From NCBI GenBank assembly GCA_964016885.1, contig OZ024760.1, positions 25,420,001 to 25,484,000 of the forward strand: a stretch of DNA of 64,000 bases, given 5' to 3'. Both the position numbers and the translations under genes were made by a program. This stretch comes from Eledone cirrhosa. Its lineage: Eukaryota. The stretch's first letter is position 1. Each line of letters begins with the position of its first letter. Shown piece by piece: positions 1 to 56,818 of the stretch. The notes below the pieces were generated by a model, which was given only the letters and a program-made list of their open reading frames with translations, did not search any database and was not told the origin of the DNA.

Positions 1-2
1 GA

Positions 3-1836
3 CCAGTCTGTGGGGCTAACATTGCTAGTAACTACAGACTGTCCTACTTCCTCTCCCTGATCATACGCCCCATCATTGAGATGTCCCCAGATGTGTGTGA
101 CAGCACGGAGGACCTCCTCAGCAGAATCGGCGCGGGTAACCGATCTGGGGACCTAACAAACTGCATAATAGGCAGTATGGATGTTGTGACCCTGTACCCA
201 TCTATTGACGTGGATTTTGCTGTGGAGAAATGCGTAGAAATGATCAGCGAGAGCAAGGTTGAGTTCCGTGGGATTGATACCAGTGAGCTGGGACTTCTAC
301 TTAAGCTTACCCATAGTAATAGTTACCTAGACACATATGACCTTAGCAACCTGTGCCCTACAAGACCAGCAAGAGGCAGACCACCTACCATTACCTCAAT
401 GGCCAAGAAAACCCACACAGATAGATGGAACGGGTGGACCAGAGCCATACGGACACCCGAAAACCACGATGAACTGAAGAAAATGATTGCACATGCGGTA
501 GGGGCCAGCATAAAATTAACCCTTAAGGAACATATGTTCAAATTTAATGGTAAAACATATGCCCAAGAGGAAGGAGCAGCCATTGGTGTTAGCATTGCAG
601 GCGACATAGATATATATTCATGGTATGGTGGGACAGTAGACTTAAACAAAAACTTAATGAACAATTAGAAGACAGCTTAACCCTGATAATGTACTCCCGC
701 TACGTAGATGATATAAACATCGTAGTTAAGACACCCCCACTAAAGAACAGTCAGGAACTAGAGAAAAACACAATGGAAAGCATCCAGCAAATAGCAAACT
801 CCATCCACCAGAGCATTAGAGTTACTATAGACTACCCAAGTAGACATCCCAACCATCTATTACCTGTACTAGACACAGAGCTCTGGTTAGATACCATTAA
901 CAACCAAAAACAAATCCTCCATTCCCATTATGCCAAACCCATGACTTCCAAACATCTGATCCACCGAAACTCGGCCATTTCGGACCATACCAAAATCAAC
1001 ATACTGATTGCGGATTTGGTACGGGTGACGAGAAACGTGTCTCGCATGTGCAACCCCAAAGAACTAAACTAGAGAGACACATACAACACTTCATCCACCG
1101 TATGCAGTTCTCTGGTTACAACCAGAGAGATAAAATCAGAGTATATAGAGGAGCCAGAACCAAATGGGAAAAAATGGTAAATAATGACATAAATGGGACC
1201 TGCCCCTTGTATAGGAGCAAATTTTGGAATAGAATAGAAAGAACTAGGAACAAGGCCAATAGAATAAACTCATGGTATGATAGCAATAAATACCAGAGTG
1301 TAATGTTCATCAATACAACCCCTAGAGGCGAACTAGCCTACAAATTTAGAAGGGCCCTAAATAAACATAATCTCAATATTAAGATAGTAGAAAGACCTGG
1401 TACCTCCGTAAAAACACTTATTAGCAAGACATACCCGTTCCAAAGACCCTCATGTATAGATAAGAAATGTATAACCTGTAAAATAAGCCCCCATATTAAC
1501 TGTAAAACTAGAAATGTAGTGTATAGCATAAGATGTACTGAAGGACAATGTAGAAACAAAAATATAGTGTACATAGGTGAGACAGCTCGTAGTATAGGGG
1601 AACGAATAAATGAACACTGGCGAGACCTCCAAGATAATAAAGAATCATCTGTGCTCTACCAACATGCTAAGATAGAACACAGGGGTAGATTAGAGAGCAT
1701 AGAAATAAAAATAGAATCCACGCACAGAAAAGACGCAATGTTTAGGCAAATTACAGAGGCAGTAAGCATAAAAGAATTAAAACCAAAATTAAATAGAAAA
1801 TATGAGTGGAACAGCAACATCACAACTTACAATTAA
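3..1836 (+). pseudogene. Penelope-like retroelement ORF (RT plus C-terminal GIY-YIG endonuclease), runs off the window 5' edge, two frameshifts (~615, ~1068)
   Basis: Consecutive frames give RT motifs PVCG, GSMDVVTLYPSI, QEEGAAIG, YSRYVDD, LPVLD and HYAKPM. These are followed by a Cys-rich linker CIDKKCITC and a GIY-YIG domain VVYSIRC...[16 protein letters not shown]...HAKIEH...[15 protein letters not shown]. Confidence 0.93.
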
Positions 1837-2330
1837 GGACAAAATGAAAACACACACACACATAGAACAAACAACTTACAATTGAAAACACACACAAAAT
1901 GAAAACACACACAGGACAAAATGAAAACACACACACACATAGAACAAACAACCAACCAACAATAAATAAATAAACAAATAGAAAAATGAACACAAACACA
2001 CACAGACACCCGGATGTGGCACATGCGCAAACTGAGCACACAACACACACACAGAAACAAAATGGCGTAGGATAGAAGAAAGAAAAGGCACAGAAACGAA
2101 GAAAGGAATCCCCAGTCACTGAAGAGGTCACAGAGTGTGTGACGAAAGGACTATGACTATATATATAAACAACTATCTGGTTGTGGAACCAACCAACCAG
2201 CCAGAAATTTATAATTTATAAGTTTGTAGATTTGTAAATTTATAAATTTATAAATATATAATAAATTGAAGTGAAAGCAACTGGTGCGTGTGATTCTTAT
2301 TGGCAACATGACCCTCCCAAAGTATAACAA
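1837..2330 (+). mobile_element. PLE 3' UTR / pseudo-LTR ending in (TA)n
   Basis: Same sequence recurs at 25229-25720, 53940-54410 and 55292-55690, and it carries a hammerhead motif. Confidence 0.85.
2114..2158 (+). ncRNA. Minimal type I hammerhead ribozyme in PLE pseudo-LTR
   Basis: AGUCA-CUGAAGA-G-GUCAC(AGAGUGU)GUGAC-GAAA-GGAC-UA-UGACU: stems I and II pair and the core is intact. Confidence 0.85.
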
Positions 2331-11121: not shown

Positions 11122-12230
11122 TTATATATGTATATATATATATATATATGTATTTATATATGTATATATATATATATGTATTTATATATGTATATATATA
11201 TATATATGTATTTATATATGTATATATATATATGTATTTATATATGTATATATATATATATATGTATTTATATATGTATATATTTATATGTATTTATATA
11301 TGTATATATATATATATATGTATTTATATATGTATATATATATATATATGTATTTATATATGTATATATATATATATGTATTTATATTTGTATATATATA
11401 TATATGTATTTATATATGTATATATATATATGTATTTATATATGTATATATATATGTATTTATATATGTATATATATATATGTATTTATATATGTATATA
11501 TATATATGTATTTATATATGTATATATATATGTATTTATATATATATATATGTATTTATATATGTATTTATATATGTATTTATATATGTATATATATATA
11601 TGTGTTTATATATGTATATATATATGTATATATATATGTATTTATATATGTATATATATATGTATTTATATATGTATTTATATATGTATATATATATATG
11701 CATTTATATATGTATATATATATGTATTTATATATGTATATGTATTTATATATGTATATATATATATATGTATTTATATATGTATATATATATATATGTA
11801 TTTATATATGTATATATATATATGTATTTATATATGTATACATATATATATATGTATTTACATATGTATACATATATATATATGTATTTATATATGTATA
11901 CATATATATATATGTATTTATATATGTATAGATACATATATATTTATGTATATATATACATATACATATGTATATATAATGTATGTGAATGTGTGTGTAT
12001 ACGTATATTTACATACATATAGGCTGATAGATCGATAAAGTTTTGTACTTTCAGTTTAATACATATCAATTCAAGTAACGTGATAAATATGGAAATATTC
12101 TTAGAATTTCAGCCATTTAAAGAGTCTTTCACTTCTGTAACACTGACAGGACGTTTTAAAGACACACCATCTCTCTTCCAAAACCAATCAATGGATCGAT
12201 ATTTATTGTTATTATTAGTTATATTATAAG

Positions 12231-13140
12231 GGCGGTGGATTGGCAGTATCGGTAGAGGGTCGGACGCCATGCTTTCTAGCATAGTTACGTCCCTTTGCGA
12301 TCTGAGTTCGAATCCGGCCGAGGTTGACTTTGCCTTTCATCCTTACGGGGTCGATAAAATAAAGTACCAGTGATGCACTGGGTAATTGCTGGCCTTGTGC
12401 CTAAAGTAGAATCAATTCTTAGTTATATTATTAAGGCGGTGGATTGCTAGATGGTCGGACGCCATGCTTTGAAGCATAGAGTTACGGCCCTTGCCATTCT
12501 GAGTTCAGATCCCACCAGGTTAACTTTGCCTTTCATCCTTACGAGGTCGATAAAATAAAGTACCAGTGGTCTACTGGGATATTTGCTGGCCTTGTGCCCA
12601 AAGTAGAAACGATTATTAATTATATTATTAACGCTTTGGATTGGCAGTATCTGTAGAGCGTCAGACAGCATGCTTTGCACCATTGAGTTAATGCCTTTTA
12701 TGTTCTGATTTCTAATCCCGCTGATGTTAACTTTGCCTTTCATCCTTACGGGGTGGATAAAATAAAGTCCCAGTAATACACTGGGGTAATTGCTGGCCTT
12801 GAGCCAAAACAGTAACAATTATTAGTTATATTATTAGCTTTGTCGTTACGTGTCTATAAAATAAAATACGAGTAATACACTGAGATAATTACTCGCCTAA
12901 AGAAGAAACAATGTTTCTACTGTGCCAAAAGTAGAAACAATTATTATTAATGGCGGATTGGCAGAATCGGTAGAAAGTCCGATTCCATGCTTTGCAAGCA
13001 TAGAATCATGGTCCTTTATGATCTGAGTTCAAATCCCGTCGAGTTTAACTTTGCCCTTCATCATTAAGGGGTTGATAAAATAAGGTACCAATGATGTACT
13101 GGGGTAATTGCTGGCCTTGTGCCAAAAATAGAAATAATTA
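12231..13140 (+). mobile_element. Tandem array of ~4.5 tRNA-derived SINEs with Nin/Deu-like domain (octopus OK-like)
   Basis: Repeated TGGATTGGCAG...GAGTTCGAATCC...GCCTTTCATCCTTACGGGGTCGATAAAATAAAGTACCAGT...GGCCTTGTGCC units with (TTA)n tails. Confidence 0.85.
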
Positions 13141-13151
13141 TACTTATCATT

Positions 13152-14143
13152 ATTGGCACCTGGAATGTTGCCAGACACTCACTGCCCTCTACCAAGCGGG
13201 CAATGCGATCAGTGGAACTTCCACTCTCGAGTTCTATACAGGATTAGTCGTGGGCAAGTGCGATGACGCACTCGGAGAAGCTTAGGGCCTCGACGAAGTC
13301 GAACTGACCAGTCTGTACCGGAGGACTTTCGACAATTTCCAGAAATCCCTCGCTTGGCACTACTACCGGGGGATAAACTCTGCTACCGGTTCGGGATAAA
13401 CTCTAGGGGCACGGAATTGCTGTCAGACGGACCTGTCTAAGATGCGCACAGAGCGACGAAACCGTTCTGCACGCACTTGTCCAATGTCCGTGCATTACTG
13501 ACTTGTGGAGTTATGTCGAACAGCTACTGTCGCGTGTGGAACGGACCCGGCTATCGGCCGAGTCCATAGTGAAGATCGACGCGCCGCCTTCCTTAGGTCA
13601 GGAAGAGCAGGAAATTTTCCTCTGTCGGGTGGCAGTTGCGAAAGAGCTTATATGGTGGACCAGGTTAAAAGGACTGAAGACAGACACTTTTCTCTTCGGC
13701 CAATCCCTCATCAACTTCTTCAAGTTTCACCTGGAAAGGAAGGTGAGGGTGGAGAGAGAAGTGCTGCCCCCCCCCCCTCCTCAGTATATTTGCTAAAAGG
13801 TGGATGAATGTGGCGAGAATGGCCCGTGTGAATGGGCCTAATCTGAACATGCGCCTATAGTCTAGCTAACTTGAGGAGGAGAGGGGGTGCTCTCCCTGGG
13901 TGCCCTAGAAGCGCAGGGTGGTTCAGGGTTGGTGGGGTACCCGAGTCACCCCAGGGTCAACCACTCCCTATAGGGGAATTTATTTTGTTATATTTATGTA
14001 TAGTTTATTTTATATTTTTTATATCTTCATTGTTAAATTAGTCTTTCCATTGTGCACTTTCACTCAACCTTATCGTAAACCCCTACTGTCCCTGTCTTTG
14101 TATTGTCCCGTACATGTCGGCCCTTGTGGTTAATAAATGAAAT
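13152..14143 (+). mobile_element. 5'-truncated Tx1/L1-type LINE (ORF2 C-terminus with CCHC finger, 3' UTR, (ATT)n tail)
   Basis: Reads ...TCLRCAQSDETVLHALVQCP..DLWSYVEQLLSRV. Homologous to 27430-28400, with in-frame stops. Confidence 0.85.
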
Positions 14144-16347: not shown

Positions 16348-16394
<47 letters not shown>

Positions 16395-16398
<4 letters not shown>

Positions 16399-16680
16399 CA
16401 AATGGGGAGAAGAATACTGCTGGTTGCACATGGATAACATGTAATAAAATAAGTCCCTCATCAGTGATTTGCCGACGATCATAGATATTTCATTGCATTA
16501 AAAATCATATACCTCACGTCGGTGCAATAATAAATAAATTAAGTTATTAGGACAATTAAAACGCGTAAAGCGAGTGAAACAAGATAACAACAAGGAGGAT
16601 AGCTAACCGTAGAAGGAAGGAAACAAGCTTCATAGTTATTCTGTTAGCATAAGCTAGGTGAATATATGAGCGCTTAGAAA
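16395..16680 (-). mobile_element. Non-coding repeat family P (permuted-hammerhead family), copy A
   Basis: Homologous to 56345-56780, 36205-36945 and 21945-22335, and abuts (TA)n. Confidence 0.8.
16453..16522 (-). ncRNA. Candidate non-circularly permuted hammerhead with k-turn, copy A
   Basis: CCGAC-GUGA-GGUAU-A-UGAUUU..GCAAU-GAA-AUAUC-UAU-GAUC-GUCGG-C-AAAUCA-CUGAUGA-GGGAC. Confidence 0.6.
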
Positions 16681-16689
16681 AAAGACCTT

Positions 16690-16745
16690 TCAGTTTCAGA
16701 AGATCCCGTTAAGGGTGAAAGCAGCGATTAAACTTTAATCTGTTA

Positions 16746-21750: not shown

Positions 21751-21944
21751 TATATATATATACGTATATGGCGATTGAAGGAAGACGTCTATGCCAGGAT
21801 CGCCTGTCTTCGTGAAACCCTTCGTAAATGAAATAATTATCTCATGTTGTCTATTACATAACTAAAAAGCTCTGTAGCCTACATAGAGCACACTCTTTTC
21901 CTTTAATTTTTCCTACGGAAATACTTTATATATATATATATATC

Positions 21945-22334
21945 GTCTGCGACTTCACAGAACTTATGTTTACCGAATTCGCAGACCAGACCCCTTCTTC
22001 CTCCCGTTAGACCTGTGCGAAATTCCTTCCTTGGTCACATTTCAACCAGGTTTGATGGTCTTTATTCTCTCGTTCACGATTCCACCGAATTTATATTCAT
22101 AGAAATCTGGGACTTGTTTCTTCTTCATCACTTTCTGTTGCTTAAACCATTTTGTTTGTTTACCCTAGCGTCCCCCTTATTTACGTGTCCCAACGACTTT
22201 TTTTAGCCGTTGCTCGCACCAACCTGAGGTATATGGCCTTTAATGCGACGAAATGCCTACGACGGTTGGAAGGCCACTGATGAGGACAAACTTTTTCATA
22301 TGTAACCCATTTGCAGCGCCGCAGCTCCATTATT

Positions 22335-22335
<1 letters not shown>
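21945..22335 (+). mobile_element. Repeat family P, copy B
   Basis: Reverse-complement homology to ~36215-36580 (e.g. caaccaggtttgatggtctttattctct). Flanked by (TA)n. Confidence 0.8.
22219..22287 (+). ncRNA. Candidate non-circularly permuted hammerhead with k-turn, copy B
   Basis: CCAAC-CUGA-GGUAU-A-UGGCCUU-UAAUGCGAC-GAA-AUGCC-UAC-GACG-GUUGG-AAGGCCA-CUGAUGA-GGAC. Confidence 0.65.
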
Positions 22336-22389
<54 letters not shown>

Positions 22390-22552
22390 GATCTCCGAAT
22401 CAATTTAACCTAATAGCAAATGTTATGAAGATCTAAAACGGAGAAAGCATGCTTTGCGAACATCAGTTTTTAATACATGTTATAAAGATCGTTTTCATAT
22501 ATACCAGGTGCACTTTTCGTACCATTTTTTTTTTTTGTCATTTTCCTCATAT

Positions 22553-22932
22553 AATTGTTTCTACTTTAGGCACAAAGCCAGCATAATACCCAGTACATTA
22601 CTGGTACTTTATTTTATCGACCCTGTAAGGATGAAAGGCAAAGTTAACCTCGGCGGGATTCGAACTCAGACAGTAAAGGGACGTAACTCAATGTTTCAAA
22701 GCATGGTGTCCAACTTTCTACCGATACTGCCAATCCACCGTTATAATTGTGTCTACTTTTGGCACAAGGCCAGCAATTACCCAGTACATTACTGGTACTT
22801 TATTTTATCGACCCTGTCAGGATGAAAGGCAAAGTTAACCTCGGCGGGATTTGAACTAAGACTGTAAAGGGACGTAACTATGCCAGAAAGCATGGCGTCC
22901 AACCCTCTACCGATACTGCCAATTCACCGCCC
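22553..22932 (-). mobile_element. Two tandem Nin/Deu-type SINEs
   Basis: Reverse complement of the 12231 unit, twice. Confidence 0.85.
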
Positions 22933-23024
22933 TTCCTCATTTTCCTCATATAATGGAATATGCATAGAAGGTATTCTAACGTCCACACACTCCCCCACAC
23001 ACACGCACACACACACGCACACGC

Positions 23025-23055
<31 letters not shown>

Positions 23056-23284
23056 TTTATGTGAATTCTACAGGACTAGAATTGAATCATTCGCTTGAAA
23101 TCATCTGGTAAATAAATGATACTGGTGATGTTAATGATGATGATGATGATGATTGTGATCAGGATGATAATGTTGATAAATGATTTTGCTAATGATAGTG
23201 AAGATGGTGATGATGCTAATAATGATGATGTTGATGAAAATTATGAAGATGAGAATGAATACGACGATGATGATGATGATGTTA

Positions 23285-23472
23285 ATAAATTGTTCTACTT
23301 TTGGCACAAGGCCAGCAATTATCTCAGTGTATTACTGGTACTTTATTTTATCGATCCCCGGTAAGGATGAGAGGCAAAGTTAACGTCGGCGGTATTTGAG
23401 CTCAGATCATAAAGGGCCGTAACTCTATGCACCAAAGCATGGTGTCCGACCCTCTACCAATACTACCAATCC
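23285..23472 (-). mobile_element. Nin/Deu-type SINE within (GAT)n
   Basis: Reverse complement of the 12231 unit. The adjacent 23440-23680 block is locally duplicated at 23685-23960. Confidence 0.8.
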
Positions 23473-24135
23473 TTTAATAATGATGATGTTGATGACGACG
23501 ATGTTGATGACGACGATGAAGATACCGATGACGATGAAGATGCCGATGACGATGAAGGCGCCGATGACGATGACGATAAAGATAAAGAATTATGTTGATG
23601 AAAAGCGAAAGACGTGAAACATAAAATATGTAAAAATAAATTTAAAAAATTAGAAAAAAATAACAAAACAAGATGCAAACAACATAGTGTCCGATCCTCT
23701 ACCAATACTACCAATCCGTTAATAATGATGATGTTGATGACGATGATGATGACGACGACGATGAAGATGCCGATGACGATGAAGATGACGATGAAGATGA
23801 AGAATTATGTTGATGAAAAACGAAAGAAGTGAAACATAAAATATGTTAAAAAAAAAAAAAAAATTAGAAAAAAATATGTAAAAAAAAAAAAAATTAGAAA
23901 AAAAAAATGTAAAAATAAAAAAAAAATTAGAAAAAAATAACAAAACAAGATGCAAACAAAAGAAAATAAACATAACAGTAGATGAAAGCAAAAATGGTGG
24001 AAGAGATTCTCCGCCATTTTAACAACTAGGTGTATATGTCTAGAGAAGTGAAGATCAAAGACTTGCCAAAGTAGAACGGTTTCAAACCTGGAGAAAAGTG
24101 TGCTGAAAATCGGATCTAATAAGTATTTTAGTAGA

Positions 24136-25231: not shown

Positions 25232-25720
25232 CGTTTATGAATTTGTTTAGCAAGCTTCTTTATCTGAAAACGTGTGTTGAAACCGATATTGTTATACTTC
25301 GGGAGGGTCATGTTGCCAATAAGAAACACACGCACGAGTTGCTTTCACTCCAATTTATTATAAATTAAATTTATAAATTTCCGGTTGGCTGGTTGGTTGG
25401 TTCCATAACCGGACGGTTGTTCATATATTGTCAAAGTTCTTTCGTCACACATTCTGTGACCTCTTCAGTGACTGAAGATGGCGTAGGACAGAACAATGGA
25501 GAGGCACAAAACAAAAAAAAGAATCCCCAGTCACTGAAGAGGTCACATAATGTGTGACGAAAGAACTTTGACAATATATGAACACCCGTCCGGTTATGGA
25601 ACTAACCAACCAACCGGAAATTTATAAATTCCTAAATTTATAAATTTATTATAATAAATTGAAGTGAAAGCAACTGGTGCGTGTGTTTCTTATTGGCAAC
25701 ATGACCCTCCCAAAGTATAA
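25229..25720. mobile_element. Two PLE pseudo-LTRs in inverted (divergent) arrangement, each with an HHR (25430-25472 -, 25530-25572 +)
   Basis: Both arms match 2060-2330. HHR reads GUCA-CUGAAGA-G-GUCAC..GUGAC-GAAAGAAC-UU-UGAC. Confidence 0.88.
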
Positions 25721-25768
25721 CCGATCTATAAATCTGTCTCTCACTCTCGCTCTCTATCTATCCATCTA

Positions 25769-47867: not shown

Positions 47868-48198
47868 GCTTCTGGTTTAGGCAAAAGGCCAGCAAATTTA
47901 GGGGATTGGGAGGGCAAAGTTGATTAAAGTAACCCAAGTCATTACTAGTATTCCATTTTCTCACCCCTGAAAGGATGAAAGGCAAAGTTGATGTCGGCAA
48001 GATTTGGATTGTATATAAAATAACTGTTTCTTCTTTTGGCACAAGGCCAGCAATTACCCCAGTACATTATTGGTACTTAATTTTATCGACCCCGTAAGGA
48101 GGAATGGCAAAGTTAACCTTTGCGGGGTTTGAACTCAGCCCCTAAAAGGCCGTGATTCTATGCTACAAAGCATGGCGTCCGGCCCTCTGCCAATCCAC
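47868..48198 (-). mobile_element. Two Nin/Deu-type SINE copies
   Basis: aaggccagcaa...cccc.(t/a)aagga.gaa.ggcaaagtt. Confidence 0.75.
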
Positions 48199-52250: not shown

Positions 52251-52331
52251 GAGTCCAGAATGTTGAGGAGGAGGGGGGTGTAGATAATAAAATATTAACA
52301 ACAACAACAATAACAACAATAACGGTAATAA

Positions 52332-52497
52332 CAATTGTTTCTACATTTGGCACAAGGCCAGCAAAAACCCCCCAGTGTATTACTGGTATTTTATTTTATC
52401 GACCTCGTAAGCATGAAACGCAAAGGTAACCTAGGCGGGATTTGAACTCAGAACGTAAACGGTCATAGCTCTATGCTGCAAAGAATGGTGTCTGACG
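52332..52497 (-). mobile_element. Nin/Deu-type SINE
   Basis: Reverse complement of the 12231 unit. Confidence 0.78.

Positions 52498-53702: not shown

Positions 53703-53708
<6 letters not shown>
53503..53708 (+). mobile_element. Repeat family F with ~60 bp-arm terminal palindrome
   Basis: aacgagtaggaccccgacggctgagctcaagccgtttcggcggctaattc / gaatcagccgtcgaaacggcttgagctcagccgtcgaggtcctactcgtt. Confidence 0.85.
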
Positions 53709-53755
<47 letters not shown>

Positions 53756-53829
53756 TATATATGTATATATATATATATGTATATATATGCATATATATGT
53801 ATATATATATATATGTATATATATGCATA

Positions 53830-53926
<97 letters not shown>

Positions 53927-53939
53927 GTATATATATATA

Positions 53940-54740
53940 TTTCGTTTCTGAATTTGTTTAGCAAGATTCTTTATCTGAAATCGTGTGTTGAAACCGATAT
54001 TGTTATACTTTGGGAGGGTCATGTTGCCAATAAGAAACACACGCACTAGTTGTTTCACTTCAATTTATTATATATTTATAAATTTATAAATTTACAAATC
54101 TACAAACTTATAAATTTCTGGTTGGTTGGTTGGTTCCACAACCAGATAGTTGTTTATATATAGTCATAGTCCTTTCGTCACACACTCTGTGACCTCTTCA
54201 GTGACTGGGGATTCCTTTCTTTGTTTCTGTGCCTTTCCTTTCTTCTGTCCTACGCCATTTTGTTTCTGTGTGTGTGTTGTGTGCTCAGTTTGCGCATGCG
54301 CCACATCCGGGTGCCTGTGTGTGTTTGTGTTCATTTATCTATTTGTTTATTTATTTACATGTTGTTGGTTGGTTGTTTGTTGTATGTGTGTGTGTGTTTT
54401 CATTTTGTCCTTAATTGTAAGTTGTGATGTTGCTGTTCCACTCATATTTTCTATTTAATTTTGGTTGTAATTCTTTTATGCTTACTGCCTCTGTAATTTG
54501 CCTAAACATTGCATCTTTTCTGTGTGTGGATTCTATTTTTATTTCTATGTTCTCTAATTTACCCTTGTGTTCTATCTTAGGATGTTGGTAGAGTACAGAT
54601 GATTCTTTATTATCTTGAAGGTCTCGCCAGTGTTCATTTATCCGTTCCCCTATACTACGAGCTGTCTCACCTATGTACACTATATTTTTATTTCTACATT
54701 GTCCTTCAGTACATCTTATGCTATACACTACATTTCTAGC
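53940..54740 (-). mobile_element. 5'-truncated PLE copy (GIY-YIG end, pseudo-LTR, HHR at 54162-54206)
   Basis: Near-identical to 1508-2330. [25 protein letters not shown]. Confidence 0.92.
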
Positions 54741-54952: not shown

Positions 54953-56305
<1,353 letters not shown>

Positions 56306-56344
56306 TATATGTATATATATATATATATATAAAAACATGAGAAG

Positions 56345-56780
56345 AAAGAAGAATACTGCGTGGTTGCATATAGGTTACATATGATGAAAATAGTCCTTCG
56401 TCAGTGATTTTCCAACCATCATTGGTATTTCATCGCATTAAAAATCATATACCTCAGGTTGGCGCGAGAAATAACTAAAAAAAGTTATTGGGACCAGTAA
56501 ATCGCGTAAAGCGAGGGGGACAAGTGAACAACATAGAAGGATAAAAGCAAACCAAAGAAAGGAAATAAACAAGCAACATGGTAGTCCTGGTCAGCATAAG
56601 CTGGGTGGATTTCATGAGCGAAAGGTACAGACACGTCCAGCGTGAGTGGGATGTAAGCAAGAAGCGGCCCACTGTTAGCCAAATGGGAGAAGGGGAGAAA
56701 CAGAGAGTGAGCGAGTGGAAGTGCGAGGAAGCGGTCAGTCGAGAGAAAGTATAACTGACAGAGGGGGCGAAAGAAGGTGA
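56345..56780 (-). mobile_element. Repeat family P, copy E
   Basis: Homologous to 16395-16680. Confidence 0.8.
56393..56462 (-). ncRNA. Candidate non-circularly permuted hammerhead with k-turn, copy E (best match to model)
   Basis: CCAAC-CUGA-GGUAU-A-UGAUUUU-UAAUGCGAU-GAA-AUACC-AAU-GAUG-GUUGG-AAAAUCA-CUGACGA-AGGAC. Confidence 0.68.
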
Positions 56781-56787
56781 GATATAC

Positions 56788-56818
<31 letters not shown>

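Follow-up and report, generated by a model that had tools for sequence, protein, structure and literature searches.

The window analysed here, 64,000 nucleotides of Eledone cirrhosa DNA (assembly GCA_964016885.1, contig OZ024760.1, positions 25,420,001 to 25,484,000), contains five copies of a short motif in which the strands of a hammerhead core can be recognised, in an order that is none of types I, II and III. This raises the questions of whether such an RNA would cut itself, where its stem II would come from, and what kind of element carries it. We think it probable that the motif is a self-cleaving ribozyme with a stem II drawn from upstream strands, and that its host is a retrozyme derived from the tail of a Naiad Penelope-like element (PLE).

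The motif in the window

The five copies had been reported in a preliminary description of the window, and on re-reading all of them lie where it placed them (Table 1), each with block S (GGUAU-A and a stem I strand) followed by block G (GAAA and a stem III strand) and block C (a stem I strand and CUGANGA). The variants of stems I and III that it listed, and the complementary 10.1/11.1 pairs, are also as it gave them. It had argued that the order S-G-C is a non-circular permutation, and indeed types I, II and III share the circular order C-G-S; its caution about novelty was well placed, as the order had already been published as type SGC (Eckert 2023, PMC10085705).

The pattern TTAANGCNNNGAAAN{20,26}CTGANGA, which runs across blocks G and C and leaves block S outside it, has exactly five matches in the window, these being the five copies (shuffled sequences gave a mean of 0.00, with 0/100), and an nhmmer profile found the same five places and nothing else. 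Rfam gave nothing at gathering score for the window copies, and its weak matches, of snoRNA type with E of 0.1-8, were rejected.

In other respects the preliminary description needs extension. Its extent for copy E, 56393-56462, is too short by about 32 nt on the 5' side, where the motif continues to 56494; the core that it recognised stands, and four more helices in the 5' half had been overlooked. There are five copies as it said, which represent four independent insertions since 36874-36944 and 36256-36357 belong to one tandem insertion, and the first of these, copy D, which it took for a full core, is 5'-truncated and degenerate, with a 1-nt insertion in stem I and a G-G mismatch in stem III. 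It could see one pair of stem II and missed the remainder, for which we look to P2b and P2a, two upstream strands separated by a hairpin. Nor did it cover the repeat that carries the motif, which is non-coding, arranged in tandem and present in about 20,000 copies, or the link to Naiads.

Table 1. Positions in the window of the predicted ribozymes, their parts, their host repeats and neighbouring elements
Feature	Position	Strand	Remarks
Copy E, complete predicted ribozyme	56393..56494	-	from sequence and covariation
Copy E, P2a 5' strand	56491..56494	-	partner 56393-56396, the strand after CUGACGA-A
Copy E, hairpin with U-rich loop	56470..56490	-	closing pair lost in copy E (56469)
Copy E, P2b 5' strand	56463..56467	-	partner 56433-56437, the strand before 11.1 and GAAA; predicted stand-in for stem II
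Copy E, P0 5' strand	56457..56462	-	partner 56412-56417; equivalent of the stem I/II interaction helix
Copy E, block S	56441..56453	-	stem III strand 56453-56449, H17 = A56448, stem I strand 56447-56441
Copy E, block G	56424..56432	-	U11.1 (56432), GAAA, stem III 3' strand
Copy E, block C	56397..56411	-	stem I 3' strand, CUGACGA 56404-56398, A 56397 pairing with U11.1
Copy E, host repeat	56318..56788	-	5'-truncated monomer, subfamily spacing ~526 nt, ends at (TA)n
Copy B, predicted ribozyme	22186..22288	+	G10.1-C11.1; predicted cut after 22233, as in the preliminary description
Copy B, host repeat	21943-22353		monomer 610-630 nt; many 100% identical copies in genome
Copy A, predicted ribozyme	16453..16553	-	P0 and P2b compensatory
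Copy A, host repeat	16385-16693		monomer ~516 nt
Copy C, predicted ribozyme	36256..36357	-	inside tandem insertion 36190-36945, monomer ~630 nt
Copy D	36874..36944	-	upstream unit of copy C's tandem insertion; without P2a, hairpin and P2b
Window PLE	1-2330	+	RT, CX4CX2C motif, C-terminal GIY-YIG; Neptune- or Nematis-like
Window PLE, copy	~55300-56305	-
Window PLE, copy	53708-54739	-
Window PLE, copy	25475-25721
Window PLE, minimal type I hammerhead	2114-2158	+	copies at 55482 (-), 54201 (-) and 25534 (+)
Dispersed repeat	12211-13157, 22550-22934, 23278-23484, 33242-33407, 48013-48198, 52326-52497		unit ~190-200 bp, partly tandem

The predicted fold and its conservation

From 5' to 3' the predicted layout is P2a, hairpin, P2b, P0, stem III, the NUH site with stem I, a short linker, P2b', GAAA, III', P0', I', CUGANGA and P2a'. 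In copy E the linker after stem I is UAA and the word in block C is CUGACGA, and by analogy with published SGC ribozymes (PMC10085705) the cut is predicted between 56448 and 56447. Folding of single sequences gives only nested helices (in copy E these are P2a, the hairpin, P0 and III), with z of -0.7 to -2.3, and is uninformative here because the motif has several pseudoknots.

To check the motif the preliminary description had proposed collecting copies genome-wide, aligning them and testing covariation; with this done the core proves conserved and the stems covary. Our searches covered the 3.0-Gb assembly that contains the window. A BLAST-type search gave 2082 candidates with copy B, 1734 with copy E and 1209 with copy A, and among the 40 candidates per query that were scored the top ones are 96-100% identical. 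The pattern across blocks G and C has 9754 + 9940 = 19,694 matches in the genome as against 1 + 1 in the reversed control, and there are two related, older families, with 364 matches (0 in controls) and 222 matches (2 in controls).

For the family of the window (family 1) 24 of 40 clusters were aligned, those dropped having a 5' module that is truncated, inverted, deleted or at the edge of the locus. In this alignment CUGANGA and GAAA are invariant by selection, 89% of cells are paired and 25 of 35 pairs have double changes. None of 500 shuffles reached the observed value, which is not a probability because the shuffle ignores relatedness, and slid controls gave 29-45%. Taken helix by helix, P2a is 81% paired, being partly misaligned through a 1-nt deletion in some subfamilies, the hairpin is 95% paired with 4 of 7 pairs compensatory, P2b 86% with 3 of 5, and P0 94% with all 6 of its pairs compensatory. 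The covariation of stems I and III that had been noted between the window copies is borne out, with 5 of 7 and 2 of 5 pairs compensatory among the 24 representatives. Family 2, with 18 of 27 clusters aligned, is 90% paired with 9 of 38 pairs compensatory. There are seven covarying helices and no strand is shared by two of them.

Features free of the search pattern were examined in 93 of 102 copies, those reaching at least 12 nt upstream of the site, and as block S was outside the pattern the site itself is among them. An NUH site lies between stems III and I, with A at H17 in 71 copies and C in the other 22, so that G and U do not occur there; U16.1 is retained in 91/93. Five or more of the 6 stem I pairs can form in 93/93, and four or more of the 5 stem III pairs in 92/93. 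In 53 distinct profile matches, in which three subfamilies dominate, conservation of the core bases is 0.96-1.0 and that of N7 is 0.57. On these sequence data the motif is very likely to be a hammerhead-type ribozyme.

Signs bearing on cleavage

If cut RNA is copied by reverse transcriptase the cDNA should end at the cut. At head-to-head junctions spacers of 14 nt or less were found in 27 of 39 cases at the cut anchor (41 matches, with two unrelated ones dropped) and in 7 of 29 at the control anchor (Fisher p 5e-4), the expectation for uniform ends being 24%, equal to the control anchor; the excess is confounded, since the counts can be raised by palindromic microhomology and TA microhomology close to the site. 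With perfect palindromes removed, in a count by eye, the figures are about 20/31 and 4/26. When we take 5' ends that lie within 100 nt of the site, those falling near it are 8/27, 4/6 and 6/16 in families 1, 2 and 3, a weak excess (p of 0.019, 0.003 and 0.10 respectively, the first becoming 0.099 if each pair of arms is counted once), and the family 3 ends are 2-17 nt short of the site. We regard the clustering of insertion ends near the predicted cut as suggestive.

It could be argued that the fold is a hammerhead relic which a retroelement protein recognises as a non-catalytic tail, and which is retained for binding or for choice of the RT start site. Self-cleavage of the motif is a prediction and its stem II is unusual, and passages of the study of a Poseidon PLE (PMC11167929) report that hammerhead cleavage is not needed for insertion in vitro, being dispensable for PAc insertion, and that RNA-seq ends were not seen at the cleavage site. 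However the NUH rule at H17 is kept in every one of the 93 copies, N7 varies while its neighbours do not, and the insertion ends lean to the predicted site. Furthermore there is no conflict between helices, since stems I and III, P0 and P2b, all of them covarying, have separate strands. We therefore consider a non-catalytic tail unlikely, and continue with the motif as a probable ribozyme.

Stem II and the wiring of the core

The difficulty lies with stem II. The strand after CUGANGA forms 0-2 bp with the strand before GAAA in 101/101 family 1 copies, and in a family from metagenomes, discussed below, an ordinary stem II after CUGANGA has 0 bp in 38/38 copies, 26 of which have a 6-7 bp upstream partner that begins with G. 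We also tried the motif as a canonical hammerhead, in which a hairpin and GAAA would come downstream, and rejected this as there are none after CUGANGA.

In the SGC-1, SGC-2 and SGC-3 oligonucleotides there is one bulged U between A9 and G10.1, according to the passages of PMC10085705 compared, and we infer that our motif may be the SGC/CSG ring opened at that bulge, with P2b as the working stem II. P2a and the hairpin would hold the opened ends together, and the A9-G12 side would have a four-way junction. The 5' flank would contribute G10.1 in Naiads and in families 2 and 3, and in the family of the window the junction would be shifted by one pair, with a single A-U, G-U, G-C or U-A pair capping the core. 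The model thus predicts a split stem II, made through an upstream strand and a four-way junction. We counted against it that Eckert 2023 (PMC10085705) assumed block C to be indivisible, and found no tested precedent for a split stem II in the literature. The comparison with the 176 published SGC variants was made on passages of the supplement.

The alternative is ordinary SGC cutting, either with a stem II of one pair or with two tandem units forming a dimer, and a purely accessory part for the 5' helices. In family 1 the base after A9 can form a standard or wobble pair with 11.1 in 86 of the 93 sampled copies, and passages of PMC7229834 report that PLE and salamander hammerheads cut better as dimers. 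The pair is absent in the other 7/93, and in one of the older subfamilies G frequently faces A or G. The stronger objection comes from family 2 and the metagenome family, in which these two bases are A and C in 29/30 and 37/38 copies respectively, so that no standard pair is possible, whereas an upstream G can pair with C11.1; in addition P2b and P0 covary locally. A one-pair or dimeric stem II seems to us improbable, and the split stem II remains our preferred model.

The host repeat

Copies of the motif occur singly, in tandem or head-to-head. Tandem spacings are mostly 497-683 nt, with clusters at about 516, 526, 624, 630 and 672 nt, and the five commonest monomers have 39-45% GC and a longest ATG ORF of 32-108 aa. 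Within 200 nt downstream there is a (TA)4+ tract in 85 of 101 sampled copies, as against a background of 31%, and the (TA)n tracts are mostly 100-130 nt past the predicted cut. ORF scans beside about 290 loci in this genome found no copy joined to an RT frame. Judged by its anatomy in sequence, the repeat is a non-autonomous Penelope-type repeat, like the non-LTR retrozymes.

The older families (loci L181-L210 and L251-L280) also have the split SGC layout, with GUC/GUU or GUA sites, and family 3 has a 7-bp P2b and an 8-bp stem III. Further motifs that have blocks G and C, each single or rare, occur at L281-L291, and an S block is recognisable in L282, L283 and L290, which suggests that there are more families in this genome. 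The window also contains another dispersed repeat (Table 1).

Mobilisation could proceed as follows. Read-through transcripts of tandem copies would be cut after NUH once per unit, and the monomers of 500-680 nt could be circularised. With a Penelope-type RT/endonuclease supplied in trans, cDNA would start at the (TA)n target, about 100-130 nt downstream of the cut, and one to several units would be copied, and cDNA made on cut RNA would stop near the cut. With regard to transcription, the hairpin loop at 22191-22212 and its equivalents in other copies have a run of up to 7 U. A U run of this length would be expected to stop RNA polymerase III, and read-through by polymerase II is thus the more likely route.

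The proposed relationship to Naiads

Naiads are described in passages of Craig et al. 2021 (PMC8557442) as having (TA)n targets and being without canonical hammerheads, with 18 cases in which only HHR_core or HHR_half_core was flagged. We read by eye the 3' ends (last 150-600 nt, with names assigned by entry order) of 30 of the 54 published Naiad consensus sequences, and in these stretches 15 of the 30 have SGC or CSG cores. The split SGC layout was seen in eight, Bfor, Amil, Aacu, Anas, Movir-2, Plae, Obim and Ovul, with four phyla among the tails in which it was seen. Esco and Ppla have another SGC form, that of Ppla with a long insert and an ordinary stem II, and CSG was seen in Nbra-1, -2 and -3, Hpol and Smim, the last with a bulged U. 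A clear core was not found by eye in the viewed stretches of the other 15. The tail of Movir-1 may resemble a twister. It and the tails of CGi, Olur, Pmar, Chem-1 and Chem-2, in the parts of File S5 of PMC8557442 covered, have other conserved RNA-like motifs and no hammerhead core.

A metagenome scan gave 120 loci, of which about 46 are one family with the split layout. Some 74 were rejected as chance matches, and L334 passed the filter and is bacterial. In contig L309 a Naiad RT ORF has its stop codon 325 nt before the motif, and the end of this ORF has 90% identity with P0002 and 65% identity with P0030, a full Naiad of 953 aa with an N-terminal GIY-YIG, the words DKA and DFSTLYT, and a C-terminal RT. 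Only one of the approximately 46 metagenome copies reaches an ORF. From these tails and L309 it is likely that the predicted fold in which many Naiads appear to end is the ribozyme that they were reported to lack.

The situation within the Eledone genome is different. Three Naiad protein-motif patterns gave nothing real there (1 match against 1 in the control, none, and 2 non-Naiad matches), a protein search gave only decayed Naiads (29-35% identity, stops in most), and a look at 20 stretches downstream of these revealed no core. An upstream ORF with N-terminal GIY-YIG and C-terminal RT, as in an autonomous Naiad, was found at L309 only and beside none of the copies scanned in this genome. The remnants of Naiad RT at loci L413-L430 are in an advanced state of decay and share long 3' regions. 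Naiad descent is thus unsupported within this genome, its Naiads being decayed and having no core downstream, and as the repeats are young they need another helper. The genome has intact frames of PLEs with a C-terminal endonuclease, also within (TA)n, and we see these as the likely candidate.

These points are also the case for a real ribozyme in a repeat that is not derived from Naiads, being either an independent retrozyme lineage or one from a canonical PLE of this genome. However the hammerhead in the window's canonical PLE is of type I, ordinary and minimal, and the split layout is found behind the Naiad RT of L309 and, by eye, in tails of Naiads from four phyla. Naiad ancestry is compatible with mobilisation by a canonical PLE today, and we think a non-Naiad origin very improbable. 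As to the window PLE itself, its type I hammerheads were missed by Rfam, Pfam found no family in four of its ORF pieces, and one fragment lies next to copy E, with a (TA)n tract between them.

That the motif is like a box C/D snoRNA, or is a satellite sequence arisen by chance, is scarcely credible, as the weak Rfam match to snR66 (E 0.1 and 25 bits, where the cut-off is 65) is offset by CUGA standing after and not before the 3' stem strand and by a box-C-like word that is broken in several subfamilies, and chance is excluded by the controls and covariation.

Returning to Naiad descent, we favour, with some reserve, a broader proposal, that Naiads carry SGC/CSG hammerheads, that the commonest of these has a new wiring, opened inside the CUGANGA block and with stem II from a distant 5' strand via a four-way junction, and that it is active and drives animal retrozymes with more than 20,000 copies in one genome. 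If this is correct, non-circularly permuted hammerheads are present in animal chromosomes in tens of thousands of copies, where the previous record was a few hundred sequences from metatranscriptomes and two of type CSG. It would also give a testable answer to the stated puzzle of how Naiads spread with only cores or half cores and no canonical hammerhead, and would challenge the indivisible block C that is the assumption behind the six-permutation scheme. Surveys of retrozymes with type I models would then be missing a whole class.

Comparison with known systems

The motif has neither the circular C-G-S order nor the Rfam match of hammerhead types I, II and III. With the SGC type (HRIMA-1 and variants; Eckert, Friedrich, Weinberg and Weinberg 2023, PMC10085705) it shares the order S-G-C, the conserved core, the NUH site, the short linker from stem I to the strand that precedes GAAA and an extra helix that uses the strand 5' of stem I'. 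This helix, P0, joins the far sides of stems I and II, its partner strand following P2b in the 5' flank, whereas in published SGC it is at the 3' end. In published SGC a stem II of 4-5 bp is made by the strand after CUGANGA, past one bulged U. In our motif that strand pairs with the 5' flank, there is no multi-pair stem II directly after CUGANGA, the helix under GAAA comes from the upstream strand P2b in its place, and a hairpin and P2a are added. Type SGC came from metatranscriptomes and was not found in genomes of known organisms (PMC10085705), whereas the host here is a high-copy animal repeat, and in the open-access literature we found no report that Naiads, retrozymes or animal genomes carry permuted hammerheads. 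We file the motif as an SGC variant, as its working would be SGC-like and the uninterrupted block C is absent. The CSG type (two sequences, PMC10085705) has the same helix ring opened elsewhere and differs in block order and in its intact stem II; the CSG cores that we saw by eye are in nematode and spider Naiad tails.

The non-LTR retrozymes of animals, as described in parts of Cervera and de la Pena 2020 (PMC7229834) and of Li, Clavereau and Pollet 2026 (10.64898/2026.07.22.740005), are like the window repeat in that their monomers are non-coding, in tandem and have one hammerhead each, and also in low GC content (39-45% here), copy numbers in the thousands and a proposed origin from PLEs. 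They differ in having type I hammerheads and monomers of 150-450 bp, as against an SGC core and 500-680 nt, and passages of the 2026 preprint describe searches with type I models only. The window repeats, unlike Naiad PLEs, code for no protein, and several Naiad tails carry other motifs, but the two have in common the RNA layout, as seen behind the RT of L309 and by eye in consensus tails of PMC8557442, and also the (TA)n targets and tandem or inverted 5'-truncated insertions, which are common to other PLE clades and not diagnostic.
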